64,000 nucleotides of DNA, taken from assembly GCA_947491315.1 (NCBI GenBank), contig CANLII010000006.1, positions 27,301 to 91,300 of the forward strand. Reading direction: 5' to 3'. The notes below the pieces were generated by a model. It had not been told where the DNA came from. It saw nothing but the letters and a program-made list of their open reading frames with translations, and searched no databases. Within the stretch, counting starts at the first letter, position 1. The number at the start of each line of letters is the position of its first letter. Position numbers and translations under genes: made by a program. The stretch comes from Ignavibacteria bacterium. GTDB taxonomy: Bacteria > Bacteroidota > Ignavibacteria > Kapaibacteriales > UBA961. This document shows positions 11,261-34,210 of the stretch, in pieces.

Positions 11261-11325
11261 CGAATTTGAGACGTAATTTCTGAGTTAAAAAACACCTAAA
11301 AAAGCTGATATTTCCACATTCCCCA

Positions 11326-11444: not shown

Positions 11445-11629
11445 AAGTGGTTCTCGTAAAAACGAATCGCAAATGTAGGGAATTCTTCCGAATTTTCGAT
11501 GCTACTTTCTCTATGGAAGGTTGCAACTGTGCACAACTTATTGGGATAGAACCTGCTTCATTGCTTTCAATTCACTACTTTTGCACAGCATATTACAGTA
11601 TTTCTGTTTCACTCATTCGGACTTCTATC

Positions 11630-12697
11630 ATGTTCGATTCGATTGTCTCCCTTTTAGGCGAAAACGCTTCTTATTTACTTGATCATCACTCAAACACTAT
11701 CCCGAAAGAGCAGCTTCATCTCCCTTCTCCGAATGCTGTGGATGAAATTTTTGGCATTTCGGATAGAAATAACAGAGTATTGTCGAATCTTCAGAGAATG
11801 GCTGATTCGGGAAGATTGGCAGGAACCGGTTATACTTCAATCCTTCCTGTAGATCAAGGCATTGAGCATTCCGCAGGTGCCAGTTTTGCAAAAAATCCTG
11901 CCTATTTCGATCCTGAGAATATCATCAAGCTTGCCATTGAGGGTGGCTGCAATGCAGTTGCCTCCACTTTCGGTGTTTTGTCGATGACAAGCAGAAAATA
12001 CGCGCATAGGATTCCTTATATAGTGAAAATCAATCATAATGAGCTTCTCACATATCCGAATAAAGCTGATCAAATCATGTATGGGACAATGAAGCAGGCC
12101 TATGATATGGGTGCCGCGGCTGTAGGAGCTACGATTTATTTTGGATCACCTGAAAGTACAAGACAAATTATTGAAGTATCCGAAGCTTTTGCCATGGCGC
12201 ATGATTTGGGAATGGCAACTATTTTGTGGTGCTATATTAGGAATTCAGCATTCAAAACTGCAGAGAAGGATTTTCATGTTTCTGCAGACTTGACGGGTCA
12301 GGCAAACCATCTCGGCGTGACGATCAATGCAGATATTATCAAGCAAAAACTCCCAGAGAACAATGGCGGCTATTCGGCATTGAACATGGGTGGATCTTCA
12401 TATGGTAAATTGGATAAACGAATGTATACCGAGTTATCCAGTGATCACCCTATAGATCTCTGCCGTTATCAAGTTGCAAATTGTTATATGGGAAGAATCG
12501 GACTCATCAATTCCGGCGGTGCATCTGGAGAAAACGACATGTCGGAAGCTGTTTCAACCGCGGTAATCAATAAAAGAGCCGGCGGAATGGGCTTGATTTC
12601 AGGCAGAAAAGCATTTCAAAAACCAATGAATGAAGGCATTGCATTATTGCAAGGCATTCAGGATGTCTATCTCTGCAAAGAGATTACCGTGGCATAA
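11630..12697 (+). CDS. fbaB: Class I fructose-bisphosphate aldolase (DhnA/FbaB type)
   Basis: Near-collinear match to E. coli FbaB from the internal Met: [66 protein letters not shown]. The 61 codons of ORF-track extension upstream of this Met are non-homologous and overlap the tRNA terminator region. Confidence 0.92.
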
Positions 12698-12701
12698 TTT
12701 C

Positions 12702-14474
12702 ATGAAAGAACTCTCGCGATTATTTCCCTATCTGAAAAGGCATAAGCTACGCTTGATGCTTGGATTTCTGTTTGTCACTATTTCCAATATATGTTCGACA
12801 TCCATTCCTCGTTATGTTGGGTTAATTGTAGATGGCATGCAAAAAACACAAACAAATCAAGATGAAGTCAATGCTTCTATTGTGATCATTCTGCTCTTGA
12901 CAATTAGTTCCGGTTTTTTCATGTATCTCACTCGCAAGACGATTATTGTTTCCTCGCGATTGATTGAATATGAATTGCGCAATGATTTGCTGATCGCGCT
13001 ACAAAGACAATCCCTTTCCTTCTATCACAAGAATCCAACGGGTTCTTTGATGGCTCTCACCACGAATGATATAGCTGCAATGAGAGAATTCCTTGGGCCT
13101 GCGCTGATGTATTCGGCAAATACAATCACAACATTCTCATTCGCACTCGCTTTCATGGGATCACTTAATCCTTCGCTGACATTGATGGCATTGCTCCCTC
13201 TTCCCTTCATGGCATTTCTGACATATTTCATTGGGAAGAAAGTCCATATCGGTTTTCGTGATGTACAAGAACAATTTTCGCAATTGACTTCGAAGGCGCA
13301 AGAGACATTCAGTGGCGTGAGAGTGATTCGAGCATATCGAAGAGAAGCTTTCGAGACCGGTGAATTCGAAAAGCAAAGTGAAGTCTATCAACAAAGAAAT
13401 ATTCGACTTGCCTTTTTGCAATCTCTCACCATGCCTTCAATGATGGCACTTGTGGGATTCTCAAATCTCTTAGTATTAGGATATGGCGGAATACTTGTCA
13501 TTGAGGGTAAAGCAACAATTGGAGACTTATCACAGTTTTTCATCTATCTCAATCAACTCATTTGGCCTGTTGCTGCGATAGGTTGGGTTACCAATCTCAT
13601 TCAAAGAGCAGCTGCATCAGCTAAAAGAGTCGGTGATATCATGGATATGCAATCAGAAATCATAAATGATATTTCTGAGACTGTCAAGCCGATAGGTATT
13701 TCCGAAATCTCATTTGAAGCCGTTGGTATGCGCTATCCCGGTCGATCAATTCCCGCTCTTGATGATATCACATTTAAAATCCCAAAAGGTTCTTCCATCG
13801 GCATCGTTGGAGCAACAGGAAGTGGCAAATCAACAATAGCGGCATTGCTTCCCAGATTATTCGATCCAACCTCAGGTGTCATCACCATTGATGGACACAA
13901 TATCAGGACAATGCCACTCGAAGTTTTACGAAAGAAAATCGGTCTCATTCAACAAGAAGCATTCTTGTTTTCAATGTCACTTGCCGATAATATCCGATTC
14001 GGGAATCCCGATGCAAGCTTGGAAGATGTAAAAAGAGCCGCTGAATTGGCAGGCTTAGCAGATGATATAGCTGATTTTCCAAAAGGATATGACACCATTG
14101 TCGGCGAAAGAGGTATCACATTATCCGGTGGACAAAAACAAAGGACTGCAATCGCAAGAGCAATCATCATAAATCCTGAATTGCTCATTTTTGATGATGC
14201 ATTCTCTGCAGTGGATACTGCAACAGAGGAACATATCATCAAAAGTCTTTCAATGCTTATGGAATATCGTACGACAATCATCATTGCACATAGAATCTCC
14301 ACAGTATCATTATGCGATGCGATCATTGTGCTTGATAAAGGACAAATCATTGAAAGAGGTACTCATAAAGAATTACTGACAATGAATGGTGTCTATGCAA
14401 ACATGCATGAGCGTCAACAATTGGAAGAAGAATTCAAGCATTATTCGACTGAGATTTCGGAGATTGAACAATGA
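12702..14474 (+). CDS. ABC transporter, fused permease/ATPase (MsbA-like lipid/glycolipid exporter)
   Basis: Six-TM exporter domain then an NBD with Walker A GATGSGKST, signature LSGGQKQR and Walker B LIFDDAFSAVD. Start at the internal ATG 12702 (MKELSRLFPYLK..), 4 nt after the fbaB stop. Confidence 0.88.
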   Translation: MKELSRLFPYLKRHKLRLMLGFLFVTISNICSTSIPRYVGLIVDGMQKTQTNQDEVNASIVIILLLTISSGFFMYLTRKTIIVSSRLIEYELRNDLLIALQRQSLSFYHKNPTGSLMALTTNDIAAMREFLGPALMYSANTITTFSFALAFMGSLNPSLTLMALLPLPFMAFLTYFIGKKVHIGFRDVQEQFSQLTSKAQETFSGVRVIRAYRREAFETGEFEKQSEVYQQRNIRLAFLQSLTMPSMMALVGFSNLLVLGYGGILVIEGKATIGDLSQFFIYLNQLIWPVAAIGWVTNLIQRAAASAKRVGDIMDMQSEIINDISETVKPIGISEISFEAVGMRYPGRSIPALDDITFKIPKGSSIGIVGATGSGKSTIAALLPRLFDPTSGVITIDGHNIRTMPLEVLRKKIGLIQQEAFLFSMSLADNIRFGNPDASLEDVKRAAELAGLADDIADFPKGYDTIVGERGITLSGGQKQRTAIARAIIINPELLIFDDAFSAVDTATEEHIIKSLSMLMEYRTTIIIAHRISTVSLCDAIIVLDKGQIIERGTHKELLTMNGVYANMHERQQLEEEFKHYSTEISEIEQ

Positions 14475-15424
14475 AACTCTCGATTGTCATACCTATGTAT
14501 AATGAAGAAGGTATTGTACATGCTCTCTATCAAAGACTTGAACATACAAAAGCTTTATTCAACAGAAAATTCGATCTCATGCCATCTGACATTGAAATCA
14601 TCTTCGTGAATGATGGCTCCTCTGATGGTACATTCGATGCGCTCAAACGCTTGTGCATGGATGAAGCACATTATCAATTACTCAATCTATCTAGAAATCA
14701 TGGCCATCAAATAGCCATTACCGCCGGCATTGATCTGGCAAAAGGAGATGCTGTGGCAGTGATTGATGGCGATTTGCAAGATCCCCCGGAAACGATTGTA
14801 GATCTCTATGGGAAAATGCAGGAAGGCTTCGATGTTGTCTATGCAGTTCGAAAAAAACGCGAAGGTGAAACTCCATTCAAATTATTCACCGCGAAATTGT
14901 TTTACCGATTGCTCAAAAAGTTGACCAATGTTGAAATCCCTGTTGACACAGGAGATTTTCGCATCATGAGCCGAAGAGTCGTAACGATTCTCATGTCCAT
15001 GAATGAAAGACATCGTTTCATTCGCGGGATGATCAGCTGGATTGGATTCAATCAAACAGGTTTTGAATATGAAAGACATGAAAGACATTCCGGAGAGACG
15101 AAATATACATTCTCAAAGATGATCAAATTTGCTTTTGATGGCATCACTTCGTTTTCTTCCATACCTCTGAAACTCGCTTCCTATATGGGAATCATTACTG
15201 CGATGTTCGGTTTTTTGTATAGCGTATATATTGTATTTCTGAAGCTATTTGTCCCAAAAGCACAAATAGAACTCGGTTGGGCTTCGATCATCATCTTTAT
15301 TCTATTGCTCGGCGGAATACAATTACTTGCACTTGGCATGATCGGTGAATATCTCGGAAGGATACATGATGAAACCAAATTCCGCCCATTGTATATTGTT
15401 GAACATATCTATAAAAAAGAATGA
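14471..15424 (+). CDS. GT2 polyprenyl-phosphate glycosyltransferase (ArnC/GtrB/DPM1-like)
   Basis: MKLSIVIPMYNEE..VNDGSSDGT..DGDLQDPPE, about 317 aa with two C-terminal TM helices. ATGA overlap with the ABC stop. Confidence 0.85.
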   Translation: MKLSIVIPMYNEEGIVHALYQRLEHTKALFNRKFDLMPSDIEIIFVNDGSSDGTFDALKRLCMDEAHYQLLNLSRNHGHQIAITAGIDLAKGDAVAVIDGDLQDPPETIVDLYGKMQEGFDVVYAVRKKREGETPFKLFTAKLFYRLLKKLTNVEIPVDTGDFRIMSRRVVTILMSMNERHRFIRGMISWIGFNQTGFEYERHERHSGETKYTFSKMIKFAFDGITSFSSIPLKLASYMGIITAMFGFLYSVYIVFLKLFVPKAQIELGWASIIIFILLLGGIQLLALGMIGEYLGRIHDETKFRPLYIVEHIYKKE

Positions 15425-16119
15425 GTGAATTTGATAAATATGCTCGAGATTATGATGACATGCATGCCGAGAATGTGAAGTCTTCAGGTTATACACCCGC
15501 TTTTTTTGATGAATACAAGGTAAAAGAAATTGCTCGTTTATTGCATGCTCGAAATCAGACAAATAAACCATTACATATTCTGAATTTTGGATGTGGAATT
15601 GGAAAGAGTGAGCAATATCTCCATAAGTATTTTCCCTATGCCTCGATTGTCGGAGCGGATGTATCAAATGATTCACTTGACATAGCAAAAAAAGCTAATG
15701 CTGATTTGGATTGCATTCGTTGGGAATTGATATCTGAGACCGAGACCATTGGTTTTGGTGATACATTTGATGTGATTTTCATTGCAAATGTCTTTCATCA
15801 TATACCGCATTCAGAGCATGAGCGGATGTTGAAAGATTTACGAAATCACCTCAGACCCGATGGTAGACTTTTCATGTTTGAGCATAATCCTTGGAATCCA
15901 ATCACCGTGAAGACCATCAAGGATTGTCCATTCGACATCGATGCAGTGCTTTTGTCTCCTGCTTATTCAAAATCCGTGTATCAAAAAGCCGGATTTTCAG
16001 GAACATCCTTGCGATTTACATTGTTCTTCCCCTCATTCGCATCATTCTTGCGCCCTTTGGAGCCCATGCTCTCTTGGCTACCACTAGGTGCCCAATACTA
16101 TATTGAAGCGAAACCATGA
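15421..16119 (+). CDS. Class I SAM-dependent methyltransferase
   Basis: Motif I ILNFGCGIGK, motif II/III region VGADVS..FDVIFIANVFHH. ATGA overlap with the GT2 stop. Confidence 0.75.
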   Translation: MSEFDKYARDYDDMHAENVKSSGYTPAFFDEYKVKEIARLLHARNQTNKPLHILNFGCGIGKSEQYLHKYFPYASIVGADVSNDSLDIAKKANADLDCIRWELISETETIGFGDTFDVIFIANVFHHIPHSEHERMLKDLRNHLRPDGRLFMFEHNPWNPITVKTIKDCPFDIDAVLLSPAYSKSVYQKAGFSGTSLRFTLFFPSFASFLRPLEPMLSWLPLGAQYYIEAKP

Positions 16120-16220
16120 TATATGGCTGTTTTTTGATAAACAGCGGATAAATCCATAGTTTTACAGTAGTTTTTATCGAATTTACACAAACCATCACAG
16201 CATTGTAAGGATACTCATCG

Positions 16221-16988
16221 ATGTCATCATTGCTACAATTTCTTCGATCCACAGTCTTCACGAAAATCGTGATGGCCATAACTGGCCTTCTTATTATCGG
16301 TTTTTTGATCGGACATATGCTTGGCAATCTCTTGATGTTTGCAGGGCCTGAAAAAATCAATGCCTATGCTCTTGGATTGAAAAATCTTGGACCGCTCCTC
16401 TGGCTTGTTCGACTCGGTATGATTGCGGCATTCGGTCTGCATATTTGGTCATCGATTCAACTCGCTTACAGAAATAAAATGGCAAGACCTGTTCAATATG
16501 ATACCAAGAAATCTCTCAAATCAACATTTGCATCAAGAACAATGTTGGTTTCCGGCCTGGCGATTCTCTTCTTTGTGATCTATCATTTATTGCATTATAC
16601 ATTCGGCATCATTCAACCGAATACCTATCATGCAGGTGGGTATCGCATGGAATCCACCGGTGAAATTGTACATCATGTGTACAATATGGTTGTTGCAGGA
16701 TTCCAAAATCCATACATTTCTATCTCCTATATTCTTGCCCTGATATTTTTGTCTTCACATGTGAGTCATGCCACAACTAGTGCATTTCATACTTTGGGCG
16801 TGATGAATCCTAATGCAAAAAAAATCACTTCAAAGATTGGGCCAGCATTAGCAGGCTTATTTCTTGTCGGTTATCTATCCATTCCAATTGGCGTAATGAT
16901 TGGAGTCATCAAAAAAGCTCCTGATCAGAAATATGTTTCGACAATGACCAAAGATTGTCCTGATACTCCCGATTGCAAATGCGAGTAA
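16221..16988 (+). CDS. sdhC: Succinate dehydrogenase/fumarate reductase cytochrome b subunit (Bacteroides FrdC/SdhC type)
   Basis: 255 aa, five predicted TM helices with conserved His residues, immediately upstream of the flavoprotein and Fe-S subunits. Cys-rich tail ..DCPDTPDCKCE. Confidence 0.8.
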   Translation: MSSLLQFLRSTVFTKIVMAITGLLIIGFLIGHMLGNLLMFAGPEKINAYALGLKNLGPLLWLVRLGMIAAFGLHIWSSIQLAYRNKMARPVQYDTKKSLKSTFASRTMLVSGLAILFFVIYHLLHYTFGIIQPNTYHAGGYRMESTGEIVHHVYNMVVAGFQNPYISISYILALIFLSSHVSHATTSAFHTLGVMNPNAKKITSKIGPALAGLFLVGYLSIPIGVMIGVIKKAPDQKYVSTMTKDCPDTPDCKCE

Positions 16989-17031
16989 TCCGATTAAATA
17001 AACAAGACTTTCACTATACCGTGATATATCC

Positions 17032-18945
17032 ATGAAACTTGAATCGAATATTCCTTCAGGACCCATTGAACAAAAATGGGATAAACACCGAGCGGAAGCG
17101 AAGTTGGTAAATCCTTCTAATAAGAGAAAATACCGTATCCTTATCGTTGGGTCTGGACTTGCCGGTGCATCTGCCGCAGCCACACTAGCAGAATTGGGAT
17201 ATAATGTTGATTGCTTCACTTTTCACGATTCACCACGCAGAGCACATTCTATTGCCGCTCAAGGTGGAATCAATGCTGCCAAGAATTATCAGAATGATGG
17301 TGACAGTATTTACCGACTCTTCTATGATACCGTAAAAGGTGGTGATTTTCGTGCAAGAGAAGGAAATGTGTACCGCCTCGCACAAGTCAGCGTAAACATC
17401 ATCGATCAGTGTGTGGCTCAAGGTGTTCCATTTGCACGCGAATATGGTGGATATCTCACCAATCGTTCATTTGGTGGCGCACAAGTGTCTCGTACTTTCT
17501 ATGCGAAGGGTCAAACAGGTCAGCAATTACTACTCGGTGCATATTCCGCTTTGTCTCGTCAGATTGGCGCAGGCACAGTGACGATGCACACTAGAAATGA
17601 GATGATGGAATTGGTACTAGTTGATGGACATGCTCGTGGAATAGTCACCCGCGATCTTGTAACCGGTAAGATTGAATCTTGGTCAGGCGATGCGGTCATT
17701 TTCGCAACTGGTGGATATTCTAATGTGTTTTATCTTTCAACAAATGCGATGGCATGTAATGTGACATCCATTTGGAGAGCGCATAAGAAAGGTGCAGGAC
17801 TTGCAAATCCTTGTTTCACTCAAATTCATCCTACATCGATTCCTCAACAAGGCGAATATCAAGCAAAGCTTACACTGATGAGCGAATCACTCAGAAATGA
17901 TGGTCGTGTATGGGTGCCTCTAAAAGCGAATGACAATCGCGCATCACATGATATTCCTGAAAACGAAAGAGATTATTACCTAGAAAGAAAGTATCCTTCA
18001 TTTGGAAATCTTTCACCTCGTGACATTGCTTCTCGCGCCGCAAAAGAAGTGTGTGATGAAGGTCGTGGAGTTGGTCCAGGTGGTCGTGGCGTATATCTTG
18101 ATTTTTCAGCAGCAATCAATAGACTAGGTGAAAAGACAATCGCAGAGCGCTATGGCAATCTGTTTGAAATGTATGAAAGAATATCAGGTGAGAATCCATA
18201 TACATCACCAATGAGAATTTACCCCGCACCTCATTATACGATGGGTGGTTTATGGGTGGATTATAATCTGATGAGTACCATACCAGGATTGCATGTACTT
18301 GGCGAAGCGAATTTCTCAGATCATGGTGCAAATCGTCTAGGTGCAAGCGCTTTGATGCAGGGCTTGGCTGATGGATATTTCGTGATTCCTTATACAATCG
18401 GACATTATCTTGCGGGTGTGAAACCTGGCGAGATAACGAATGAGCATCCTGAGTTTAAGAAGGCGGTTGCCGATGTAGAAGGCAGAGTATCCAAGTTTCT
18501 TTCCATCAATGGCAAACGCACGACATCTTCATTCCATAGAGAACTCGGAATGCTTATGTGGAATAATTGTGGTATGGCTCGCAGTGAGTCAAGCTTGAAA
18601 GAAGCACTCCAACGAATTCCTGAAATTCGTGAAGAATTTTGGAATAATGTCAATGTGGTTGGTTCAGCAAATGAATTGAATACAGCTCTAGAACATGCTG
18701 GCCGTGTTGCAGACTTCTTGGAATTTGCCGAACTCATGTGCATTGATGCTCTCGAAAGAGATGAATCATGCGGAGGTCATTTCAGAACTGAGCATCAAAC
18801 AGAAGATGGCGAAGCAAAAAGAGATGATGAAAAGTTCTGTCACTCATCGGTTTGGGAATATTCCGGTGATACCGCGAAGCCAAATTTGCATAAAGAACAA
18901 CTTACTTTTGAAAATGTTAAGCTTGCAACAAGGAGCTATAAATAA
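17032..18945 (+). CDS. sdhA: Succinate dehydrogenase/fumarate reductase flavoprotein subunit
   Basis: 637 aa. FAD fold with [10 protein letters not shown] and the covalent-FAD region [10 protein letters not shown]. Typical of the FrdA/SdhA family. Confidence 0.95.
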
Positions 18946-25027: not shown

Positions 25028-25618
25028 TTAAATACAATGAACAATGATTTCGGTTTCAATGCACTGACCTTTGTCTTTAGCATAGAAACCATGTAATGAC
25101 TTATATATTTCTTGTTTTTCAGCATTCTGTGCTCGCAGTTCATCAAATAATTCCTGCGCTTTTTTTGGCCTAGGTCCCCAATTCCATTCTTCATTTCCGT
25201 GTATGTCACAAGCAATCAATTTGGGGATGCTCATCGAGCCATTTGTAGGATATTGTTCCAATAATTCAGGATACTCATCTCTTGACACAATTCGTAATTC
25301 AATCCTTCCTTCCGATGCTTGAGCTAGAGCGGCAATGATCGGAAGGGACTGTGCTGAATCTCCACACCAACCTTCCGTAATGACAATCCAAGTTTGTTTT
25401 GATTTCATTGTTTGCAATGCGTGTAAAGCTTGATCAGAGGGTTGATATACTTTTTCTACTCTAATGCTTCTTGCCCAGTTCAATTCATAATATGCAAACA
25501 TTTCTTGCTCTTTTTCTGTCATATCTCCTATTGGAGCATGTGATTTCAAAGAAAATGCTGTTTTATATGAATCATAGTCCATCGAATGTTTTACATATTC
25601 AAATGCAGTACTAGTCAT
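25028..25618 (-). CDS. Thioredoxin-fold protein (Thioredoxin_9-like, WCGDS motif)
   Basis: 196 aa, no signal peptide. ITEGWCGDSAQSLPI in a thioredoxin-like context. Confidence 0.55.
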   Translation of the reverse strand: MTSTAFEYVKHSMDYDSYKTAFSLKSHAPIGDMTEKEQEMFAYYELNWARSIRVEKVYQPSDQALHALQTMKSKQTWIVITEGWCGDSAQSLPIIAALAQASEGRIELRIVSRDEYPELLEQYPTNGSMSIPKLIACDIHGNEEWNWGPRPKKAQELFDELRAQNAEKQEIYKSLHGFYAKDKGQCIETEIIVHCI

Positions 25619-25709
25619 AATATAGTTATGTCAATTTTGTTAAATGAAGATAGCAGATAGGACAAATTGAACTGATCAAATTTTTATGCATACTTTGGTT
25701 ACTTATTCA

Positions 25710-26645
25710 TCAGGATAGTTCGATTGAACTTTCTTTTTTGGGAAAAACCAAAGAAAGAATCACTGATGCTGAAAGTATGAAAAGAACAAAGAGAAGGGCG
25801 AAATGTATGGGCACATGATAGAAACCACTGATCATCATTTTCACACCTATAAAACTCAAAATGATAGCAAGACCATAATTGAGATAGTGGAATAAACCCA
25901 CGACTCCTGCCAATGCGAAATACAGTGATCGCAAACCAAGAATTGCAAAAATATTCGATGTATAAACAATGAAAGGATCAGGAGAAACAGCCAAAACTGC
26001 CGGAATGGAATCCAAAGCAAATACCAAATCTGTAGTCTCAACGAGGGCTAATACAAGAAAGAGTGGCGTAGCAAATACATAACCCATTTTTCTTACAAAA
26101 AACTTATCTCCATGATAATTCTTCGAAACACCAAAGAATCTACGAACCAATTTCAATGTCCATGAAGATTCGGGTTTAAACTCTATATCATCTTTGGCGA
26201 AAAACAATTTGAAGCCGGTAAATACCAGGAAGGCACCGAGAATATAAATGATAAAACTGAACTTCGCCAGAATTGCCACACCGACAATTATAAACAAAGC
26301 ACGCATTACCAAAGCACCAAGAACACCCCAAAACAAGACTTTATGTTGGTATTTGTCAGGAACTTTGAAATAACTAAAAATCGTAAGGAAGATAAAAAGA
26401 TTGTCAACGCTCAGAGATTTTTCAATTAAGTAAGCTGTCACAAACTCCGTTGCCTGTACTGTCGATCGTAAGAAATATATACCAACTGCAAAAAGTCCTG
26501 AAAGAGCAATCCAAAAAGCACTCCACGATAAAGCTTCTTTCACTGAAATTGCATGTGCTTTCTTATGAAAAACACCAATATCTAATGCGAGCATTATAAG
26601 AATGAAGATGTGAAAGCCTACCCACAGGTATTGTTCATTGGACAT
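25710..26645 (-). CDS. TerC-family integral membrane protein
   Basis: Polytopic. Conserved DNLFIFLTIFSYFKVP and DSIPAVLAV motifs typical of TerC/Alx. Start chosen at the internal ATG at 26645 (MSNEQYL..). Confidence 0.75.
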   Translation of the reverse strand: MSNEQYLWVGFHIFILIMLALDIGVFHKKAHAISVKEALSWSAFWIALSGLFAVGIYFLRSTVQATEFVTAYLIEKSLSVDNLFIFLTIFSYFKVPDKYQHKVLFWGVLGALVMRALFIIVGVAILAKFSFIIYILGAFLVFTGFKLFFAKDDIEFKPESSWTLKLVRRFFGVSKNYHGDKFFVRKMGYVFATPLFLVLALVETTDLVFALDSIPAVLAVSPDPFIVYTSNIFAILGLRSLYFALAGVVGLFHYLNYGLAIILSFIGVKMMISGFYHVPIHFALLFVLFILSASVILSLVFPKKESSIELS

Positions 26646-26705
26646 AGTATATTCTGTACGATGTATTGTGGTGCAAACTGATGAAGACAATGAATTGAGT
26701 GGTGA

Positions 26706-27995
26706 TCATCCTTGCAATCCTTTGACTTGGCCTCTCAGTATTGAGAAGAGAATCTCCGCAAAATAATCAATTTCACTATCCGAAATGTATATGTTCGGCG
26801 TAATTCTTATCCCATCTATATTGGCATATTTGATGGGTGTTGTTATTATTCTATGTGTATTGAATAGGTATTCCCCGATTTTGGCATGATCAAATCCTTC
26901 GATTCTGAAAACCATCAATCCGCACCACTGAGATGAATCTTTAATATTTGTCATAAAACTCACTCTGGGATCATCCTTGATTCGGTTGATCCATCGCAAT
27001 TGCAATTCTCTCAATCTCATTGCTTTTCTTTCAACACCAACTCTTTCATTAAATGCAATTGCTTCGGTCACTGCATTATGCAAAGATGCGGGATGAGTAC
27101 CTATCTCCTCAAACTTCTTTATTGAATCATTCATTTCGGGTCCTGCCGCCATGAGTGGCCAAATTGATGGAATTTTGTCTTTGGCCACATAGAGCATTCC
27201 ATTTCCAACGGGGGCATACAGCCATTTATGGAGTGATGTCCCGAAATAATCACATTGGAGATCTACTTGAGTAAATGGAAAATGAGCAAATGAATGTGCT
27301 CCATCAACTATACATTCAATGCCCTTTTCCTTGGCTAGCATGCAAATTTCTTTTACTGGATAGATTTGACCGGAACAAAATGCAACATGCGACACATGAA
27401 TGACTTTTGTCTTTTTATTGATAGCCTGCTTAAAAGCATTCACTATGTCCATCGGATCCATAACGGGAACAATAATTGGTATTTTTTTAATTATTATGCC
27501 ATCTCTTCTCGATCTTTGTTCCCAAGCGGTTAGCATTCTTGGATAATCATGTTCGGTAGTGAGGACTTCATCTCCTTTTTGTAAGGTTAGGCCCATTTGA
27601 ACATGATGCAAACTTTCACTTGCATTTCTAGTAATGGCTATTTCTTCATTAGAAACGCCAAATACTTGAGCAATTCCTTGTCTCACCCTTTCCAAACCGG
27701 GTTCTTGTTGTTGCCAAATATTTCTTGCGGGAGCTTGATTGGCATAATCCAAACCGGTATGCAATGCTTGCATTACTGATCTTGGGCTGGGGCTTACTCC
27801 ACCATTATTCAAATTGATCATTGTTCTGTCCATCGGAAATTCTGTTCTGATGGATTGCCATAAGTCATTTTCATTCAACAATGTATGCTTTTCATTATCA
27901 GTACTTTGAAGAACTGACAATGCTTGCATTGGTGTTGCCAGCATTAGACCTGCTTTCAGTACCAATCTTCGATCAATCTGAGAAGGAAATTTCAT
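26706..27995 (-). CDS. Class-V aminotransferase-fold PLP-dependent enzyme with twin-arginine (Tat) signal (isopenicillin-N-epimerase / cysteine-desulfurase-like)
   Basis: N-terminus IDRRLVLKAGLMLATPMQALS (RR-x-hydrophobic-LK then h-region). About 400-aa fold-type I body with a lysine-containing SLHKWLYAPVGNG region. Confidence 0.6.
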   Translation of the reverse strand: MKFPSQIDRRLVLKAGLMLATPMQALSVLQSTDNEKHTLLNENDLWQSIRTEFPMDRTMINLNNGGVSPSPRSVMQALHTGLDYANQAPARNIWQQQEPGLERVRQGIAQVFGVSNEEIAITRNASESLHHVQMGLTLQKGDEVLTTEHDYPRMLTAWEQRSRRDGIIIKKIPIIVPVMDPMDIVNAFKQAINKKTKVIHVSHVAFCSGQIYPVKEICMLAKEKGIECIVDGAHSFAHFPFTQVDLQCDYFGTSLHKWLYAPVGNGMLYVAKDKIPSIWPLMAAGPEMNDSIKKFEEIGTHPASLHNAVTEAIAFNERVGVERKAMRLRELQLRWINRIKDDPRVSFMTNIKDSSQWCGLMVFRIEGFDHAKIGEYLFNTHRIITTPIKYANIDGIRITPNIYISDSEIDYFAEILFSILRGQVKGLQG

Positions 27996-28251
27996 AACTC
28001 ACACCTAATATTTATGGCGGAATTTATAAAAAAAGATTGAACATTCATGCTCAAAAGCTTAAATGAATGTGATGGTCTTGCAACACAAAAAGGAAAAAGC
28101 CATAAAATTCCACTGCAAAAGGCAATTAGTAGTGTGGAAAACTCTGAATTTTCGTATTTTTATCACCGTGGTAAGGTGTATTCTTTACAAAGCAAACCTT
28201 GGATTAAACCTATATTCTGTATTGCTTTTGTACAAACCATAGTTTGAGATC

Positions 28252-29373
28252 ATGATGAAACGCAGATCATTTCTACATTCGGTCGGAACAGGTTTTACAG
28301 TACTTGGGTTTGCATCAATGCAAGCAAAAGCAAGTACCGGAAACGGAGAATTTGTGAATACAACAGAGTCAGTGCTTTCCAATAATATGAACAAGCACTC
28401 TGATTTTGTTTCACTTCTTCCTCCTGCCTTGAAAAAAGGTTCTACAATTGGAATTACCGCTCCTGCAAGTGGCGTAGATAATGCAGAAATTCAAGAAGGC
28501 ATTGCTTTGTTGAAAGCAAGTGGTTATTCAATTGTGTTGGGCAATACATTAACAAGAAAATACGGATATCTCTCTGCTCCCGACTCTGAAAGGGCTGCAG
28601 AGTTCATGGAATTTGTAGAAAGACCAGACATAGATTGCATTCTTTGCGCAAGAGGCGGATATGGCGTGATGAGAATCCTTCCAATGTTGGATTTTGGAGT
28701 TATTCGGGCTAATCCAAAAATCATCATTGGTTATAGTGATATCACTGCTTTGCTTGTAGCTATTACCAAACTTAGCAATGTTGTTACATATCATGGACCT
28801 GTTGCGTCTTCAACTTTTGACGCTTTCACCGTTGATTATTTCAAGAGAGCATTGTGTGTATCAATTGCAAGTGAGATTATTACTGAACAAATTTCTCCTG
28901 AATACACTCCGATATCATTCAGTGACTCGAGAATGACCACATTATCCAAAGGTATTGCAAAAGGCATACTAACAGGCGGCAATTTGTCTATGATAGTTGC
29001 AACACTAGGCACTCCATATGAAATCGATACGAAGGACTCCATACTATTTCTTGAAGACATTGCAGAGGAACCCTATCGGATAGATAGAATGCTCACGCAG
29101 TTATGGCTCGCAGGTAAGCTTCAACAATGTGCAGGAATTATTCTTGGTCAGTTTAAGAATTGCGAAGCCAAGAAGGTACCCGGTTTTGAAGTATCATTCT
29201 CTTTACTACAAGTTTTAGAATCTAGAATTAGTTCGTTAGGTATACCGGCAGTTTATGGTCTTCCTATTGGGCATGTCAAGAGTAAAATGACAATTCCACT
29301 AGGAGTAATGGCCGAATTGGATGCCGGAAATAAAACATTTTCTATCATGGAAAGACCTGTCTCTCTTTCTTGA
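28252..29373 (+). CDS. ldcA: S66-family LD-carboxypeptidase (LdcA-like) with Tat-type signal
   Basis: MMKRRSFLHSVGTGFTVLGFASMQAKA, then the S66 hallmark ..IIGYSDITAL.. and a C-terminal catalytic region (..LPIGHVKS..). Confidence 0.8.
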   Translation: MMKRRSFLHSVGTGFTVLGFASMQAKASTGNGEFVNTTESVLSNNMNKHSDFVSLLPPALKKGSTIGITAPASGVDNAEIQEGIALLKASGYSIVLGNTLTRKYGYLSAPDSERAAEFMEFVERPDIDCILCARGGYGVMRILPMLDFGVIRANPKIIIGYSDITALLVAITKLSNVVTYHGPVASSTFDAFTVDYFKRALCVSIASEIITEQISPEYTPISFSDSRMTTLSKGIAKGILTGGNLSMIVATLGTPYEIDTKDSILFLEDIAEEPYRIDRMLTQLWLAGKLQQCAGIILGQFKNCEAKKVPGFEVSFSLLQVLESRISSLGIPAVYGLPIGHVKSKMTIPLGVMAELDAGNKTFSIMERPVSLS

Positions 29374-29494: not shown

Positions 29495-32400
29495 ATGATT
29501 CTATTCTTACGATCACTCGCAATATGCATGGTGATTTTCTCAGCAATAGGAGTCTCGTTCGCACAGAACAGATTTAATGCTTATACACCTGATGCTGAGA
29601 AATTCCCAAAGGTTCGCTCCTTTTATGAGGCTACGGACAATAACAATGTTCCCCTCACAGGTATTACTTCCAGTGATTTCCGAGTCATTGAAAATGGTAT
29701 CACAATACCTGCATCGGATATCACACAAAAATGCTCAACAATTGTTGATGGACCCGAATTGAGCGTTGTTTTGGTGATTGACAAAAGTGCGTCAATGTCC
29801 GAACAAGTAGGATCAAGCCCTGAAGATACTCGCTTCCGATTTGTGAAGCAGGCTTCAAAACTCTTCGTGAGCTTATTGAATTTTATTGGAAGAACCAAAG
29901 TTGCCATTGTATCTTTTGATGGTCAGGCATATCTCGAGCATGATTGGTCAAACAATAGAAATTCGCTTTTAAAGGCAATCGATTCGATGATTCTTGGTTC
30001 TGCCACTTATTATGATCCCCCACTTTTGCATAAACAATGGGGTGCCACAACTCTGATCAAAGACAGATATGTTCGTGAGAATTTGCCTGCAACGGTAAAG
30101 AAAGTCATCATCTTTTTGACAGATGGAGAGCCAAATCGTGCTCCCACTCGTGATACAATCAAAAAAGAATTACTTGATAATGGTATTGCATTTTATGCAA
30201 TTACAGCTTTTATGGGTATGAACAAAGATCTCGCCAATTGGGCAGATATTACAGGAGGTGAGCATTATGAAGCAAACTCAAAAGATGCATACTCCAAGTT
30301 GCAAGAGATTTATGCAGAGATTGTAAAGAAATTACAAGCAAAAGAAGTATGCTATCTTGAATGGAATTCCCCAATGGGATGTAATGAAGTTAGCAGAACC
30401 AGGACAGTGAATATAACATTACAAAAGAATATCAATATCATAGATACTTCTGTCTATCAAGCTCCTGCTTCCAGCGTCATGCAATTGGCTGTCAATCCTC
30501 CCATTGTTTCTTTTGGAAATCCTGCTGTTGGAGGATCCATAGATAAAACAGTCAATGTGGAAGCAAAAAATGGCAAGCTGATTTTCACCGCCGATCCTCC
30601 TGCACCTGCAGGAAATGCAAGCTTCTCCGTTACAAGTTTTAATGGAAATGCATGGAATGGTTCTACTCCTCAAGTAATTGATTCTGGAAAAACAGCGATT
30701 GTGGGAGTCCGATTCACTCAAGGCACCACACTCGATTTTAGACAGAGCGGTCTTCGGATAAAAGGTAATCCTTGTGATCCACCATTGATTCCTCTTGTAG
30801 GCGGAACTGCAGACATTCAACTTCTTGATCCAATCAATTCTGAAATTCGTTCAACTTGCAATGACTTGACAATTCTTTGGGCAGGTGTAGATTCTATACA
30901 AGAAGTCATTATTCAATATAGTGCAGATAATGGAGCGACTTGGAATCTTCTCACTGATAAAGCGAAGGGTCTCAAGTATATTTGGTCTTCTGATGAATTG
31001 AAGAAACTCAGCACAAACGGGCAGTATAAAATTCGTGTTGGTCTTCCTCCTTCCAAGACATTTGTCTGGGCAAAGAATATCGGTGGAACATTGACTGATT
31101 CAAGCGTGAGCATTGCATTGTCCCCTGATGGTCAATATTCATATGTTGCCGGAAATTTTGAAGGCAATGGATCATTTGATAGCAAACCTATGGCAAGCAT
31201 ATCCGGAAGTAGAGATGGATTCTTTGCCAAACTGGATGTCGGTGGTAATGTTGAATTCGTGAAAAATGTTGGTGGCCCCGGTGCGGATGCAGTAACAGGC
31301 ATTGCCGCAGGTGATAATAATGCCGCATATGTGACGGGACACTTTATCGGTGAATCCACATTTGGCTTTGTGACTAAAAGATCTTCAAGCTTGACAGGCA
31401 GAAACTTCTTCATGGCTCGTGTTGAGCCTGATGGAGGAACAGTCATCGTTCAAACTCTTGGTGCAACTGTAATCAATCCAACTGCAGAAGCATATGGTGA
31501 GCGTATTGCATGGGAACAATTTGAAAAACGCGTATATGTTGAAGGTATGTATAAAGGCGTGCTTACAGCAACCATGCGTGATGGCACCAAAGCAACAATC
31601 ACAAATCGTACTCAACCAATTGTCTGGAAACCATTCACAGCAGTGTTCGATCCTGCCGGAAATTGGCTTGATCTTCAGCCGACAAGAACTCAAGGCAAAC
31701 CATATACAACTCTCAATGCAACTGACAAAGATGGCTGTTTGTATGAGACAGGTACTTTTACAGGATCAGTGACAAAAGATCCCGGTAATAAGACCATTAC
31801 ATCTGCTGGACAAACTGATGGTTTTGTGACAAAATTCTGTGGTACCCCTTCAAGCCAATCTTCAAGTTTATTGGCATTTCCACTTGCAAAAGCAAGATTA
31901 TACAGCATTGATTCCAATATTCGTTTCAGTGTAGGTGTAACTTCAGTTGGTACTCCAAAGGATAAGGTATTGAACACAGGTATTTGTAATGATGGGAATC
32001 TTGACACATTCATCGATAGTGTCAGCGTTTCAGATCCTCAATTCAGTTTAAAGTCTGTATTGAATGGTCGTCTCTTCCCTTCTGTGAATTGCGATACAGT
32101 ACCTATTGAAATATTATTCACTCCAACTACTCCCGGTGAGCATTGCGCCACACTCACATTCTATGCTACTTGTTCCCCGGTTGTTAAAATGACCATTTGC
32201 GGTGAAGCAGTTGAACCTTGTGATTATGTACATGTGGAAGACACAATCTTTGCAAATACATTGGTTGGTAGTAATAGAAGCATCACAATTACCAAAGCAT
32301 TGGAAAACAAGAGCAATATCTTGATCAATGGTAAGATGTCAGTTGGTGGTGCTAATCCCGGAGATTTTGCAATAATAAGTTATCGGATGATTGACAGAAA

Positions 32401-34210
32401 TGGCAATCCTTCAGTTGGCGATCCTTCAAATACATTCACAATTAAACCCAGTGGACATTTAGAGATTACAACAGAGTTCAAACCAACAGCCGTTGGAAAA
32501 AGACTTGCATTCATCGATCTCGGTCTTGATACAGTTTGTGTTGATGCAAAGGTACAGCTCACAGGTGAAGGTGAAGCTCAACTCACAGCTTCAGCTACTG
32601 ACGCGATTTGGAATTGCGTTCCTGTTGGCAGCAAAGATCAGAAGAATGTGGTGATCACAAATAATGGTAATAGTGAACTTGCTGTTAAGACCATTGGACT
32701 TTTACAAAATAATGGCACATTCACAATATTGAATATTCCAACATTACCTGTAAATCTTAAAAAAGATGAAACAATCAATCTCACTGTAGAATTTGCTCCT
32801 ACAACAAATACAAATGGTTTGTGGGATTCCGTACTTGTTACTGCAGTATCAACAATTGATGCAAATATCAAGGCACCTGATTTTGGTGCTAGAGTACAAG
32901 GCAATGGTTGTATCGGTGCTCCTGAATATTCAAAGAACTGTTTTGATTCCACTCGCATCGGTAGCAAATCTGCACCGAAAACAAATGCATTGGTAATCAA
33001 AAACATGGGACAAGGTCCATTGAAAGTACTTTCAATCAAACCAATCCCACCAATTGAATTTGAAGCATTCAGCCCTGCAGGACCTTTTGATATTCCTTTG
33101 AGTGGCTCACAAGATATTTCTGCTATCTTCATTCCACAGAAAAAGGGCTTGCGTAGTGGTTTCGTTGAAATCGTGACAGATGCTCGTAATGTCCCTGATA
33201 CTGTTGAATTGTGTGGTACTGGATTCCTTCCGGATACTGTTATCAATCTTGGCAGGTTCAATGCTTGTGAAAATCCGATCATTACACTTCCTTATCCGAA
33301 TGTGAGCAGCTATGATGTTCAAACAACGAACTCTGCATCAGGTGCTACAGATCAATTCAGCATTTCACCTTTGGGTAATTTCAGAATCCCTGCGAATACG
33401 AATCATAATTACTTGATTGTATTTACGCCAAATGCAGCAGGTCCTTATTCTGTGACCGCGCAACTCGGTGAACGCAATGTGACAGTAAATGCAGAAGCAT
33501 TTACATTGCCCGTCAGTATAACTTCATCAATCAATCCCGGTGAAGTAACGCCCGGTCAAAAAGTTGCTTTCAAAGTAAATGCCGATATTCAAGGGGATGT
33601 TGGGTCAGCACAAATCAATGCAATTGACATCTTAGTACGTTATGATTTTAATGATCTTGATTTTACCGGTACAGTTCGCTCTTTGAATGGCTGGACATGG
33701 ACCCCGTCTGTGAATGGGAATGTGTTAACTGTTTCAGGTACAGGTAATCCTGGTCTCTCAGGCAAAAAGGATTTGTTTGAAGCGGACTTCAATGCATACT
33801 TGGGTGATTCAACAGCATTTAAAGTGTTTGTTGATGCAAAAACCAATGGTAAATTTTCAAAGTGCTTGGTCATTGGTAATGATACCTCCACATTGAAACT
33901 CTCTCCAATTTGCTTTTCAAATGGGAGATTCATCAGAGGTTCCGGTTTAGGTTATGCATTATCTGTTTCAGGTCAATCCCCTGCTTCAGATATCGCAATG
34001 ATTGACTACTCAATCGGTATCTCATCAAATACCATCATTGAGTTATATAATTCAATGGGTCAGAAAGTCCATACATTACTTGCAGGATATGTGAAAGAAG
34101 GAGCATATCAACTCAGCATTGATGCCCAACAATTACCGGCTGGCATGTACACATGTATCTTAAAATCCGGTCCATATGCAAATCAAGTACAACTCATCAT
34201 TGTCAAGTAA
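29495..34210 (+). CDS. Giant secreted VWA-domain protein with beta-rich repeat modules and T9SS C-terminal sorting domain
   Basis: 1571 aa. Signal peptide. VWA with MIDAS (VVLVIDKSASMSE ... IIFLTDGEPN). Many Gly/Thr/Asn-rich Ig-like segments. Terminal roughly 80 aa (..IIELYNSMGQKVHTLLAGY..LSIDAQQLPAGMYTCILKSGPYANQVQLIIVK) matches the Por/T9SS CTD pattern. Confidence 0.8.
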   Translation: MILFLRSLAICMVIFSAIGVSFAQNRFNAYTPDAEKFPKVRSFYEATDNNNVPLTGITSSDFRVIENGITIPASDITQKCSTIVDGPELSVVLVIDKSASMSEQVGSSPEDTRFRFVKQASKLFVSLLNFIGRTKVAIVSFDGQAYLEHDWSNNRNSLLKAIDSMILGSATYYDPPLLHKQWGATTLIKDRYVRENLPATVKKVIIFLTDGEPNRAPTRDTIKKELLDNGIAFYAITAFMGMNKDLANWADITGGEHYEANSKDAYSKLQEIYAEIVKKLQAKEVCYLEWNSPMGCNEVSRTRTVNITLQKNINIIDTSVYQAPASSVMQLAVNPPIVSFGNPAVGGSIDKTVNVEAKNGKLIFTADPPAPAGNASFSVTSFNGNAWNGSTPQVIDSGKTAIVGVRFTQGTTLDFRQSGLRIKGNPCDPPLIPLVGGTADIQLLDPINSEIRSTCNDLTILWAGVDSIQEVIIQYSADNGATWNLLTDKAKGLKYIWSSDELKKLSTNGQYKIRVGLPPSKTFVWAKNIGGTLTDSSVSIALSPDGQYSYVAGNFEGNGSFDSKPMASISGSRDGFFAKLDVGGNVEFVKNVGGPGADAVTGIAAGDNNAAYVTGHFIGESTFGFVTKRSSSLTGRNFFMARVEPDGGTVIVQTLGATVINPTAEAYGERIAWEQFEKRVYVEGMYKGVLTATMRDGTKATITNRTQPIVWKPFTAVFDPAGNWLDLQPTRTQGKPYTTLNATDKDGCLYETGTFTGSVTKDPGNKTITSAGQTDGFVTKFCGTPSSQSSSLLAFPLAKARLYSIDSNIRFSVGVTSVGTPKDKVLNTGICNDGNLDTFIDSVSVSDPQFSLKSVLNGRLFPSVNCDTVPIEILFTPTTPGEHCATLTFYATCSPVVKMTICGEAVEPCDYVHVEDTIFANTLVGSNRSITITKALENKSNILINGKMSVGGANPGDFAIISYRMIDRNGNPSVGDPSNTFTIKPSGHLEITTEFKPTAVGKRLAFIDLGLDTVCVDAKVQLTGEGEAQLTASATDAIWNCVPVGSKDQKNVVITNNGNSELAVKTIGLLQNNGTFTILNIPTLPVNLKKDETINLTVEFAPTTNTNGLWDSVLVTAVSTIDANIKAPDFGARVQGNGCIGAPEYSKNCFDSTRIGSKSAPKTNALVIKNMGQGPLKVLSIKPIPPIEFEAFSPAGPFDIPLSGSQDISAIFIPQKKGLRSGFVEIVTDARNVPDTVELCGTGFLPDTVINLGRFNACENPIITLPYPNVSSYDVQTTNSASGATDQFSISPLGNFRIPANTNHNYLIVFTPNAAGPYSVTAQLGERNVTVNAEAFTLPVSITSSINPGEVTPGQKVAFKVNADIQGDVGSAQINAIDILVRYDFNDLDFTGTVRSLNGWTWTPSVNGNVLTVSGTGNPGLSGKKDLFEADFNAYLGDSTAFKVFVDAKTNGKFSKCLVIGNDTSTLKLSPICFSNGRFIRGSGLGYALSVSGQSPASDIAMIDYSIGISSNTIIELYNSMGQKVHTLLAGYVKEGAYQLSIDAQQLPAGMYTCILKSGPYANQVQLIIVK

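Follow-up and report, generated by a model that had tools for sequence, protein, structure and literature searches.

A divergent pair of genes in a 64,000-nt window of an Ignavibacteria bacterium genome (the whole stretch of contig CANLII010000006.1 that was analyzed) raises two questions. One is whether both products, an LD-carboxypeptidase family S66 protein and a class-V PLP enzyme, are exported through twin-arginine (Tat) signals. The other is whether their adjacency reflects a common function in the periplasm.

Gene arrangement

The ORF list and the intergenic sequence placed the two genes in divergent orientation with 256 nt between them (27996-28251), and the ORF boundaries of both agreed exactly with the coordinates already assigned to them. 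The initial annotation had described a divergent S66 and class-V PLP pair with this spacing, and Pfam agreed with that description as well as the coordinates did. The genes considered here are the following.

25710..26690, minus strand: TerC/Alx-family membrane protein gene (TIGR03718, 395 bits, over the cutoff)
26706..27995, minus strand: PLP enzyme gene, class-V fold, PvdN-like, product predicted to be periplasmic (429 aa)
28252..29373, plus strand: S66 gene, LD-carboxypeptidase family, product predicted to be periplasmic (373 aa)
29495..34210, plus strand: VWA/Ig-repeat protein gene with a T9SS C-terminal sorting domain (1571 aa; Pfam)

The neighbors of the PLP gene were TerC, Thioredoxin_9, CarboxypepD_reg-like, TldD/PmbA, a cytochrome-c assembly protein, S66, and VWA/T9SS. 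The TerC gene begins 15 nt past the PLP stop codon, so in this lineage the two genes probably form an operon. This adjacency was retained in relatives down to 60% identity and was missing from 80 distant PLP loci. On the other side, the VWA/T9SS gene lies 121 nt downstream of S66 on the same strand, an arrangement retained in L091, L093, L094, and L095 at S66 identities as low as 51%.

N-terminal signals

Tat signals were called for both proteins from motif anatomy and conservation.

27906..27995, minus strand: Tat signal peptide predicted for the PLP enzyme, spanning residues 1 to about 30, with RR encoded at 27966-27971 (motif, conservation)
28252..28332, plus strand: Tat signal peptide predicted for the S66 protein, spanning residues 1-27, with RR encoded at 28261-28266 (motif, conservation)

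The PLP enzyme begins with MKFPSQIDRRLVLKAGLMLATPMQALSVLQS, in which the RR pair occupies residues 9-10. The motif DRRLVLK (residues 8-14) is followed by 18 uncharged residues with a mean Kyte-Doolittle value of about 0.9, and there is no lipobox Cys. A signal-peptidase site between ALS and V is a candidate only, and cleavage is less certain than for the S66 protein. The S66 protein begins with MMKRRSFLHSVGTGFTVLGFASMQAKAS, with RR at residues 4-5; KRRSFLH (residues 3-9) precedes 20 uncharged residues with a mean Kyte-Doolittle value of about 0.9, again with no lipobox Cys, and cleavage is predicted past residue 27, between AKA and S. Since the signal has no Cys and ends in an AxA site, the mature S66 protein is predicted to be soluble. 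Both uncharged stretches are longer than the 13 residues set as the minimum for a Tat h-region. Only these two of the 45 ORFs of at least 150 aa in the window had Tat-like N-termini, so the signals go beyond what chance would give.

The arginine pairs (R9/R10 in the PLP enzyme, R4/R5 in the S66 protein) were invariant columns in the homologue alignments, and the canonical motifs on both proteins bore out the RR signals that had been reported from the initial reading. The PLP clade had the signal consensus S-R-R-x-F-L-K/N/R, and the RR motif was found in 108 of 120 homologues and in 77 of 80 orthologues from at least 6 phyla; orthologues with RR came from Gemmatimonadota, Acidobacteriota, Ignavibacteria, Kapabacteria, Bacteroidota, and Verrucomicrobia. 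The S66 clade had the consensus K/S-R-R-x-F-L/I, with the RR motif in 97 of 120 close homologues. Among the 150 S66 cluster representatives nearest to the protein (50%-identity clusters), at least 57 (at least 38%) had Tat-type signals, as did 56 of 80 S66 metagenome loci. Some S66 relatives carried Sec-type signals.

Could these signals be annotation artefacts, with the true starts at downstream Met codons (e.g., M18 or M23) and both proteins cytoplasmic? In-frame Met codons do occur within both h-regions, and the 46-residue N-termini were unmatched by the Pfam and NCBIfam Tat-signal HMMs at E <=10, a search in which HMMER filters drop short, weak matches. However, each ATG is the earliest possible start after an in-frame stop in both genes, so the signals are not products of over-extended ORF calls. 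The RR-x-F-L motif was also kept at the amino acid level across phyla while the linker after it varied, a pattern expected only of translated sequence under selection, and the alignment with PvdN runs through the signal region of the PLP enzyme. The first-ATG position and the cross-phylum RR conservation led us to reject the idea that the signals stem from wrongly placed starts, and we give the artefact almost no probability.

A tblastn search of the 64-kb window with the TatC of L090 found nothing, which is uninformative for a piece of this size; the window has no tatA/tatC. Because the twin-arginine signals are real and conserved, both proteins are most likely periplasmic, a prediction from sequence.

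The initial annotation had treated both enzymes as normally cytoplasmic and an exported module of the two as uncommon. For S66, this did not survive the frequency of Tat-type signals among the nearest cluster representatives or the existence of a characterized exported enzyme, LdcA of N. gonorrhoeae. The description was equally inapt for the PLP enzyme: its PvdN-like clade, which had at least 578 species-level matches in many phyla, appears from the orthologue sequences to be Tat-tagged in essentially every member. Neither export is unusual, as both proteins belong to large exported subfamilies with precedent. Our searches of the literature on PLP or S66 enzymes exported by Tat in Bacteroidota, and on this PLP clade or characterized PvdN homologues outside pyoverdine synthesis, found nothing relevant.

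The S66 protein

Both the N- and C-terminal Peptidase_S66 domains of Pfam were matched at about E 1e-39 each (135.8 and 136 bits, with gathering cutoffs of 25 and 23.7, respectively). The sole NCBIfam match was LdcA (NF008424) at 186.5 bits, under its equivalog cutoff of 378. The top PDB match was the muramoyltetrapeptide carboxypeptidase 6uuk (E 4e-43, 151 bits). By phmmer, MccF structures scored E 4e-37 and 131 bits, and LdcA of E. coli and P. aeruginosa scored E 2e-31 and 108-113 bits. The substrate assignment is less sure because the score lies under the LdcA cutoff and likeness to MccF nearly equals likeness to LdcA.

The predicted catalytic triad is encoded at the following positions.

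28735..28737, plus strand: Ser162 codon, predicted nucleophile, GYSDIT motif (conservation, 6uuk alignment)
29053-29055, plus strand: Glu268 codon, predicted triad residue, FLEDI motif (conservation, 6uuk alignment)
29272-29274, plus strand: His341 codon, predicted triad residue, GHVK motif (conservation, 6uuk alignment)

S162, E268, and H341 were invariant across 22 S66 sequences, and all three motifs aligned with those of 6uuk.

The PLP enzyme

The PLP enzyme matched Pfam Aminotran_5 (E 1.3e-38). Its best NCBIfam match was PvdN (NF051467), aligned over residues 8-416 at 164 bits, which is well under the equivalog cutoff of 650, and the two proteins are about 24% identical. The top PDB sequence match was likewise PvdN (5i90), with an alignment that reaches into the PvdN signal DRRTFLK. 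In a fold search, PvdN was again the top match (TM 0.82/0.90, rmsd 2.3 A), with structures of C-DES cystine lyase and SufS close behind; when the C-terminal domain was searched alone, PvdN was the sole PDB match. The predicted structure had pLDDT <50 at residues 1-39 and an ordered fold from about residue 42.

27225..27227, minus strand: Lys257 codon, predicted PLP Schiff-base lysine, SLHKW motif (conservation, PvdN alignment)

K257 was kept in 118 of 118 homologues and aligned with the THKW lysine of PvdN. Residues 366-405 contained no Cys. The catalytic-Cys loop of SufS would be expected in this stretch, some 15 residues ahead of the conserved Arg397, a position that derives from the Cys-Arg spacing in PDB titles (for B. 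subtilis SufS, C361 and R376) and not from a shown alignment. C358 was replaced by Ala in 20 of 118 homologues. The SufS subfamily model TIGR01979 was the second-best NCBIfam match (121 bits; cutoff, 475), and all desulfurase models scored far under their own cutoffs. Source names of the homologues included "selenocysteine lyase/cysteine desulfurase" and, for some, "isopenicillin-N epimerase". We rejected a SufS-type, persulfide-forming desulfurase because the catalytic Cys is absent. Like PvdN, the enzyme combines a class-V PLP fold and a Schiff-base Lys with a Tat signal, and it lacks the catalytic Cys of SufS-type enzymes.

When ORFs lying up to 6 kb from the PLP gene were clustered at 80 loci, no widely conserved neighbor emerged. 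The best cluster, present at 16 of 80 loci, represented synteny within Gemmatimonadota.

Linkage of the two genes

Of 80 species genomes, 0 had an S66 gene at a distance of about 10 kb or less from the PLP gene. In the reverse test, 1 of 80 S66 loci had a PLP gene next to S66, in a close relative (81% identical). The pair persisted at PLP identities of at least 66%; among relatives at 66-88% identity, it was kept only inside the full block of about 15 kb, VWA-S66<>PLP-TerC-Trx9-CarbReg-TldD-CcsA. At 60% and 67% identity, synteny broke exactly at the intergenic region, with the two genes on separate contigs of one sample; after the break, PLP was still beside TerC and S66 was still beside VWA/T9SS. 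Retention of the whole block wherever the pair was kept suggests that the arrangement was inherited rather than selected for as a pair. Adjacency across distant genomes independent of the surrounding synteny, as expected of a conserved functional pair, was not seen. Two Tat-like ORFs of 45 would be adjacent with a chance of about 4% under random placement, so the PLP and S66 genes may be co-regulated in this lineage.

27996..28251, no strand: divergent intergenic region, 256 nt, of which about 40 nt (roughly 28132-28171) form a conserved block (alignment with four relatives)

The conserved block could be a shared operator. The intergenic region contained no direct or inverted repeats, and a scan for sigma-70 promoters and terminators found sites no commoner than in shuffled sequence and none within the region. 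The TerC gene downstream of the PLP gene carries the label "R_switched_Alx", which prompted a search for riboswitches and other RNAs; Rfam gave no match over the window at the gathering threshold, nor over 25600-28400 at E <=1.

Interpretation

Taken together, these data make it quite probable that the PLP and S66 genes are functionally independent, that they share only a divergent promoter region, and that their products are folded in the cytoplasm and exported by Tat. The S66 signal would be removed between AKA and S to leave a periplasmic serine LD-carboxypeptidase of the N. gonorrhoeae LdcA kind, whose Ser162-His341-Glu268 triad would most likely act in the periplasm, cutting the terminal D-Ala off the tetrapeptide stems of peptidoglycan or off muropeptides. 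The PLP enzyme, a member of the multi-phylum PvdN-like clade, would bind PLP at Lys257 in the cytoplasm, cross the membrane as a folded holo-enzyme, and act on a periplasmic substrate that bears an amino group. Use of Tat by a PLP enzyme loaded in the cytoplasm, as the initial annotation had reasoned, agrees with what has been published for PvdN and PtaA.

The same annotation had proposed that the two enzymes form a periplasmic stem-peptide editing or epimerisation module, in which S66 would remove the terminal D-Ala and the PLP enzyme would epimerise, transaminate, or cleave a stem amino acid. Both proteins are predicted to be periplasmic, they are the only Tat-like ORFs among the 45 and are adjacent and divergent, and the arrangement was kept to about 66% PLP identity together with a conserved intergenic block. 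However, the genes were unlinked elsewhere (0/80, and 1/80 in reverse), the result that had been set beforehand as refuting the proposal. Linkage is confined to one lineage, the pair was kept only with the whole block, and the break at 60-67% identity falls between the two genes, while the PLP clade occurs alone with no conserved partner. Its closest characterized relative, PvdN, is a siderophore-tailoring decarboxylase and not an epimerase, which leaves the claimed epimerase activity unsupported, and we regard such a module as highly improbable. A looser form of the idea, which we put forward as speculation and hold to be very unlikely, is that in this Ignavibacteria lineage the genes are co-regulated through the shared intergenic region and the enzymes act sequentially on periplasmic peptidoglycan peptides, S66 for example exposing a stem residue for modification by the PLP enzyme; in a wider version, the multi-phylum, Tat-tagged PvdN-like clade could carry out an undescribed envelope housekeeping PLP reaction.

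Two further readings concern the chemistry of each enzyme by itself. The S66 protein might be an MccF-like or other periplasmic peptidase whose substrates are not murein but, for instance, imported peptides or antibiotics of the peptidyl-nucleotide type, as would fit the higher score for MccF than for LdcA of E. coli and P. aeruginosa and the missed equivalog cutoff (186 vs 378 bits). Against this, the top PDB match is a muramoyltetrapeptide carboxypeptidase, the LdcA model is the sole NCBIfam match, the one characterized Tat-exported S66 enzyme is a peptidoglycan LD-carboxypeptidase/endopeptidase, and peptidoglycan is the obvious substrate in the periplasm; a non-murein substrate is unlikely. 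For the PLP enzyme, the second-place SufS model, the nearness of C-DES and SufS to PvdN in the fold ranking, and the desulfurase source names would suit a periplasmic cysteine/cystine C-S lyase or desulfurase of the SufS/C-DES type that supplies persulfide or sulfide in the envelope. The Cys-free stretch at 366-405 and the Ala substitutions at C358 weigh against a desulfurase, as do the C-terminal domain, which matched PvdN only, and the desulfurase models, which fell far under their cutoffs; a C-DES-like lyase, which needs no catalytic Cys, may still apply. We judge this role quite unlikely.

The gene pair itself carries little weight, as its adjacency is lineage synteny and both exports are of kinds already published. 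The frequency of Tat-type and some Sec-type S66 proteins among relatives indicates that the textbook view of LdcA as an enzyme of cytoplasmic recycling is too narrow. To our knowledge, periplasmic trimming of tetrapeptide stems by S66 enzymes has been shown so far in Neisseria alone; it may be common in the FCB group and also outside it. A second by-product is the highly conserved PvdN-like clade of predicted periplasmic PLP enzymes, which extends over many phyla in the absence of a conserved gene neighborhood.

Comparison with known systems

LdcA of E. coli and P. aeruginosa has no signal peptide and functions in cytoplasmic murein recycling. The S66 protein shares the two-domain S66 fold family and the catalytic triad with these enzymes; unlike them, it carries a leader plus linker of about 55 residues. 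MccF is a cytoplasmic S66 peptidase of microcin C7 immunity that cleaves aminoacyl-nucleotide amide bonds. The S66 protein belongs to the same family as MccF, but it matched no MccF-specific model and its locus has no microcin context.

The closer counterpart is LdcA of N. gonorrhoeae (NGO1274), a periplasmic LD-carboxypeptidase/endopeptidase that acts on peptidoglycan tetrapeptide stems. It has an SRRxxL Tat signal, truncation of which abolishes its effect on the sacculus, and a triad of Ser165/Glu260/His331 verified by mutation. The S66 triad lies at nearly equal positions (162/268/341 vs 165/260/331), as compared by description and not by sequence alignment. However, the gonococcal enzyme has a lipobox and is associated with the outer membrane, whereas the S66 protein has no signal Cys and an AxA site.

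For the PLP enzyme, PtaA of pseudomonads, described in a review as an ordinary PLP-dependent transaminase, is exported by Tat with its cofactor and is also found in species without pyoverdine; the two are alike in the logic of a periplasmic PLP enzyme and not by demonstrated homology. PvdN of Pseudomonas (PA2394) is a periplasmic, decarboxylating PLP enzyme of pyoverdine tailoring, exported by Tat in a folded state with PLP bound, and the Tat dependence of its signal has been shown experimentally. The PLP enzyme has in common with PvdN the class-V PLP fold, the HKW Schiff-base lysine, a C-terminal H-R-[IV]-I motif, a D-R-R-x-x-L-K signal, and the absence of the SufS catalytic Cys. Unlike pvdN, its gene has no pvdM/pvdO, NRPS, or pyoverdine-biosynthesis neighbors. 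Since the clade is found in Ignavibacteria, Gemmatimonadota, Acidobacteriota, Bacteroidota, and others without conserved context, the substrate of the PLP enzyme is almost certainly a compound other than pyoverdine.

Gene Pair and Flanking Sequence

Both open reading frames (ORFs) were found exactly where the initial annotation had placed them, and each ATG is the earliest possible start downstream of an in-frame stop. The features of the locus are as follows.

25710-26690, minus strand: TerC/Alx-family gene (TIGR03718, 395 bits), beginning only 15 nt past the PLP stop codon
26706-27995, minus strand: PLP enzyme of class-V fold, 429 aa (Pfam Aminotran_5, E 1.3e-38)
27996-28251: divergent intergenic region, 256 nt
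28132-28171: conserved intergenic block of about 40 nt from the alignment of relatives, plus strand GTGTGGAAAACTCTGAATTTTCGTATTTTTATCACCGTGG
28252-29373, plus strand: S66 protein, 373 aa (Pfam Peptidase_S66, both domains, each about E 1e-39)
29495-34210, same strand as S66 and 3' of it: VWA/Ig-repeat protein with a T9SS sorting domain, about 1570 aa

The 40-nt block was nearly identical at 78-87% PLP identity, where the flanking intergenic sequence diverged, and was weaker at 66-68%. It had no Rfam match and no repeat symmetry, and may be a promoter or operator of FCB type common to both divergent genes. The whole intergenic region contained no Rfam element, no repeat, and no sigma-70 consensus site. 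Upstream of the TerC gene, neither yybP-ykoY nor any other riboswitch was found, despite the model name 'R_switched_Alx'. The sole Rfam gathering-threshold matches across the 64-kb window were two long tRNA genes on the minus strand (8574-8664 and 11358-11444), which are probably class II (Leu/Ser/Tyr-type) given their length of about 87-91 nt.

Twin-Arginine Signals

The N-terminus is MKFPSQIDRRLVLKAGLMLATPMQALSVLQS for the PLP enzyme and MMKRRSFLHSVGTGFTVLGFASMQAKAS for the S66 protein. The uncharged stretch after the RR pair spans 18 and 20 residues, respectively, and is only weakly hydrophobic (mean Kyte-Doolittle about 0.9); the S66 signal has a cleavage site between AKA and S, and neither N-terminus contains a lipobox cysteine. 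By the same criteria, these were the only 2 Tat-like ORFs among the 45 of at least 150 aa in the window. Short Tat-signal HMMs did not match either N-terminus, and the reality of the signals was judged by conservation among homologs.

An N-terminal RR-x-hydrophobic-hydrophobic motif was present in 108 of the 120 best PLP homologs and 97 of the 120 best S66 homologs, with the exceptions being mostly truncated or mis-started gene calls. R9/R10 (PLP) and R4/R5 (S66) were invariant alignment columns, and the consensus sequences, S-R-R-x-F-L-K/N/R for the PLP clade and K/S-R-R-x-F-L/I for the S66 clade, are the canonical Tat motif. The motif was also found in 77 of 80 PLP orthologs from species-representative genomes of Gemmatimonadota, Acidobacteriota, Ignavibacteria, Kapabacteria, Bacteroidota, and Verrucomicrobia, including cultured Paludibaculum fermentans; two of the other three were cut at contig ends and one was an R-K variant. 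This variant, upstream of position 10001 in locus L065 (Balneola sp. chromosome OZ254085.1), reads SRKDFLK rather than SRRxFLK and is the sole complete ortholog among the 80 with R-K for the twin-arginine pair.

Because the sequence past the motif varies among homologs, the motif itself is under selection, and a mis-called start as the source of the signals was ruled out by this same pattern of a conserved RR followed by a variable region. In the AlphaFold model of the PLP enzyme (mean pLDDT 85), residues 1-39 are disordered and order begins at about residue 42. The closest database homolog, P0001 (97% identical, 447 aa), was called with 18 extra upstream residues (MNVQSFFHKFRHKFPVRI...), which would shift the Tat motif to residue 27; since the remaining close homologs all share the start Met of the window ORF, this extension is probably a mis-called start. 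Motif anatomy and homolog conservation bear out the initial annotation's reading of RR-motif signals in both proteins, and the conserved signals support its suggestion that both would be exported.

Identity of the Two Proteins

The top NCBIfam match of the PLP enzyme was PvdN, a Pseudomonas periplasmic pyoverdine-tailoring PLP enzyme, with an alignment starting at residue 8, within the signal. The score of 164 bits falls below the equivalog cutoff of 650; the enzyme is therefore not a PvdN ortholog. PvdN was nevertheless the nearest solved structure in sequence (5i90, E 6e-34), with D-R-R-x-x-L-K aligned to D-R-R-T-F-L-K and the HKW Schiff-base lysine also aligned. It was the nearest fold as well (TM 0.82/0.90, rmsd 2.3 A), ahead of C-DES cystine lyase and SufS desulfurases, and the only match to the C-terminal domain alone. 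No cysteine occurs in residues 366-405, the expected place of the SufS catalytic loop. Among 118 homologs, K257, H234, H256, and R397 were invariant and C358 was replaced by Ala in 20. Taken together, these data indicate that the enzyme is PvdN-like, and identity as a persulfide-forming desulfurase was rejected. Nothing resembling a pyoverdine or NRPS cluster was found near the gene (window ORFs, Pfam), and across the 80 PLP loci no neighbor was conserved beyond within-phylum synteny. On one Bacteroidota-like contig (L090), tatC (13137-13991) lies about 4 kb downstream of a 56%-identical PLP ortholog, which is probably coincidence.

The S66 protein has both S66 domains, with S162, E268, and H341 invariant. 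Its only NCBIfam match was the LdcA equivalog model (186 bits, under the cutoff of 378), and the PDB ranking was muramoyltetrapeptide carboxypeptidase 6uuk (E 4e-43), then MccF, then LdcA of E. coli and P. aeruginosa. The substrate could conceivably be MccF-like; by analogy with gonococcal LdcA, trimming of D-Ala is the most likely role. When 1.84 billion cluster representatives were searched exhaustively with HMMER, 2541 S66 relatives were returned at E ≤1e-30. Among the nearest 150, at least 57 N-termini were Tat-type, about 14 were apparently Sec-type, and about 48 had no extension; an RR/RK motif was present in 56 of 80 S66 metagenome loci. Judged by their N-termini, exported S66 peptidases are thus common, with experimental cases from Neisseria only.

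Linkage of the Two Genes

The initial annotation had proposed that the pair could form a periplasmic module for peptidoglycan stem-peptide editing or epimerization, to be refuted if the genes were not linked elsewhere. Linkage was tested both ways. For 80 PLP-ortholog genome loci (45-56% identity; flanks with a median of 10 kb, and 3 kb or more on both sides in 52 loci), tblastn found the S66 gene in none. For 80 S66-ortholog metagenome loci (36-81% identity), an adjacent PLP gene was found only in L093, a close relative (81% identity) with the remainder of the block too. These counts argue against the module. Close relatives aside, the only locus of the 160 with both families nearby was L171, where a truncated PLP-like C-terminal fragment at the contig end (4970-5227; 40% identity to residues 335-421) and an S66 gene of 39% identity lie 3.4 kb apart on opposite strands.

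The divergent pair was kept in relatives at 87, 78, 68, and 66% PLP identity, all four of which keep the full block: VWA/T9SS and S66, then, divergently, PLP, TerC, (GH57), Thioredoxin_9, CarboxypepD_reg-like, TldD/PmbA, and CcsA-like. The GH57 glycoside hydrolase gene lies between TerC and Thioredoxin_9 in the 66-68% relatives (L085, 8297-10306; L087, 8325-10364) and is in neither the window nor the 78-87% relatives. One tier further out, the block is split precisely at the PLP-S66 intergenic region. A 60%-identical PLP gene (L089) still has TerC downstream, with a CBM-containing protein upstream, and a 67%-identical S66 gene on another contig of the same activated-sludge sample still has VWA/T9SS downstream, with an ECF sigma factor upstream. 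More distant examples of either gene had neither partner. Since the pair is kept only with the whole block and then splits at the intergenic region, its adjacency is inherited synteny.

What endures of the block is two pairings, PLP-TerC and S66-VWA/T9SS. The former outlasts PLP-S66, to the 60% tier, and is not in the 80 distant loci. The latter occurs in four S66 loci (L091, L093, L094, and L095), of which L095 has the lowest S66 identity, at 51%; the VWA/T9SS protein is thus a steadier neighbor of the S66 gene than the PLP gene is. In L091 the giant VWA/T9SS gene is a tandem duplicate (9198-17146).

In favor of a link between the two genes are the adjoining positions of the window's sole pair of Tat-like ORFs (about 4% chance if randomly placed) and the intergenic block that they share among close relatives. 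Most likely, these are two independent periplasmic enzymes. A reading in which the two cooperate in this lineage alone, or in which the PvdN-like clade has a housekeeping role not yet described, is considered very improbable.

Proposed Functions and Known Systems

The S66 protein would fold in the cytoplasm, be exported by Tat, and be cleaved after AKA; it would then act on tetrapeptide stems or soluble muropeptides, removing their terminal D-Ala via a Ser162 acyl-enzyme. The PLP enzyme would bind PLP at Lys257 in the cytoplasm, be exported as holo-enzyme, and act on an amino-bearing periplasmic substrate. Candidate chemistries include PvdN-type decarboxylation, transamination, and a C-S lyase reaction that needs no catalytic Cys.

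Each gene adds to already known types of Tat-exported enzyme, and neither type of export is new. PvdN and the functionally unrelated periplasmic transaminase PtaA have been published as folded, PLP-loaded Tat substrates, and the Tat dependence of the PvdN signal is experimental. LdcA of Neisseria gonorrhoeae belongs to the S66 family and carries an SRRxxL Tat signal; its triad (S165/E260/H331) was confirmed by mutagenesis, and it has to be in the periplasm for tripeptide stems to be produced. These precedents, together with the frequency of Tat-type N-termini in both families, do not support the initial annotation's terms 'normally cytoplasmic' and 'uncommon'. The window PLP enzyme resembles PvdN in its D-R-R-x-x-L-K signal, HKW lysine, and class-V fold, but differs in lacking pyoverdine/NRPS neighbors and in scoring below the equivalog cutoff. 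The window S66 protein shares with gonococcal LdcA the S66 family, a Tat-type signal, and the Ser/Glu/His triad (S162/E268/H341 in the window protein).
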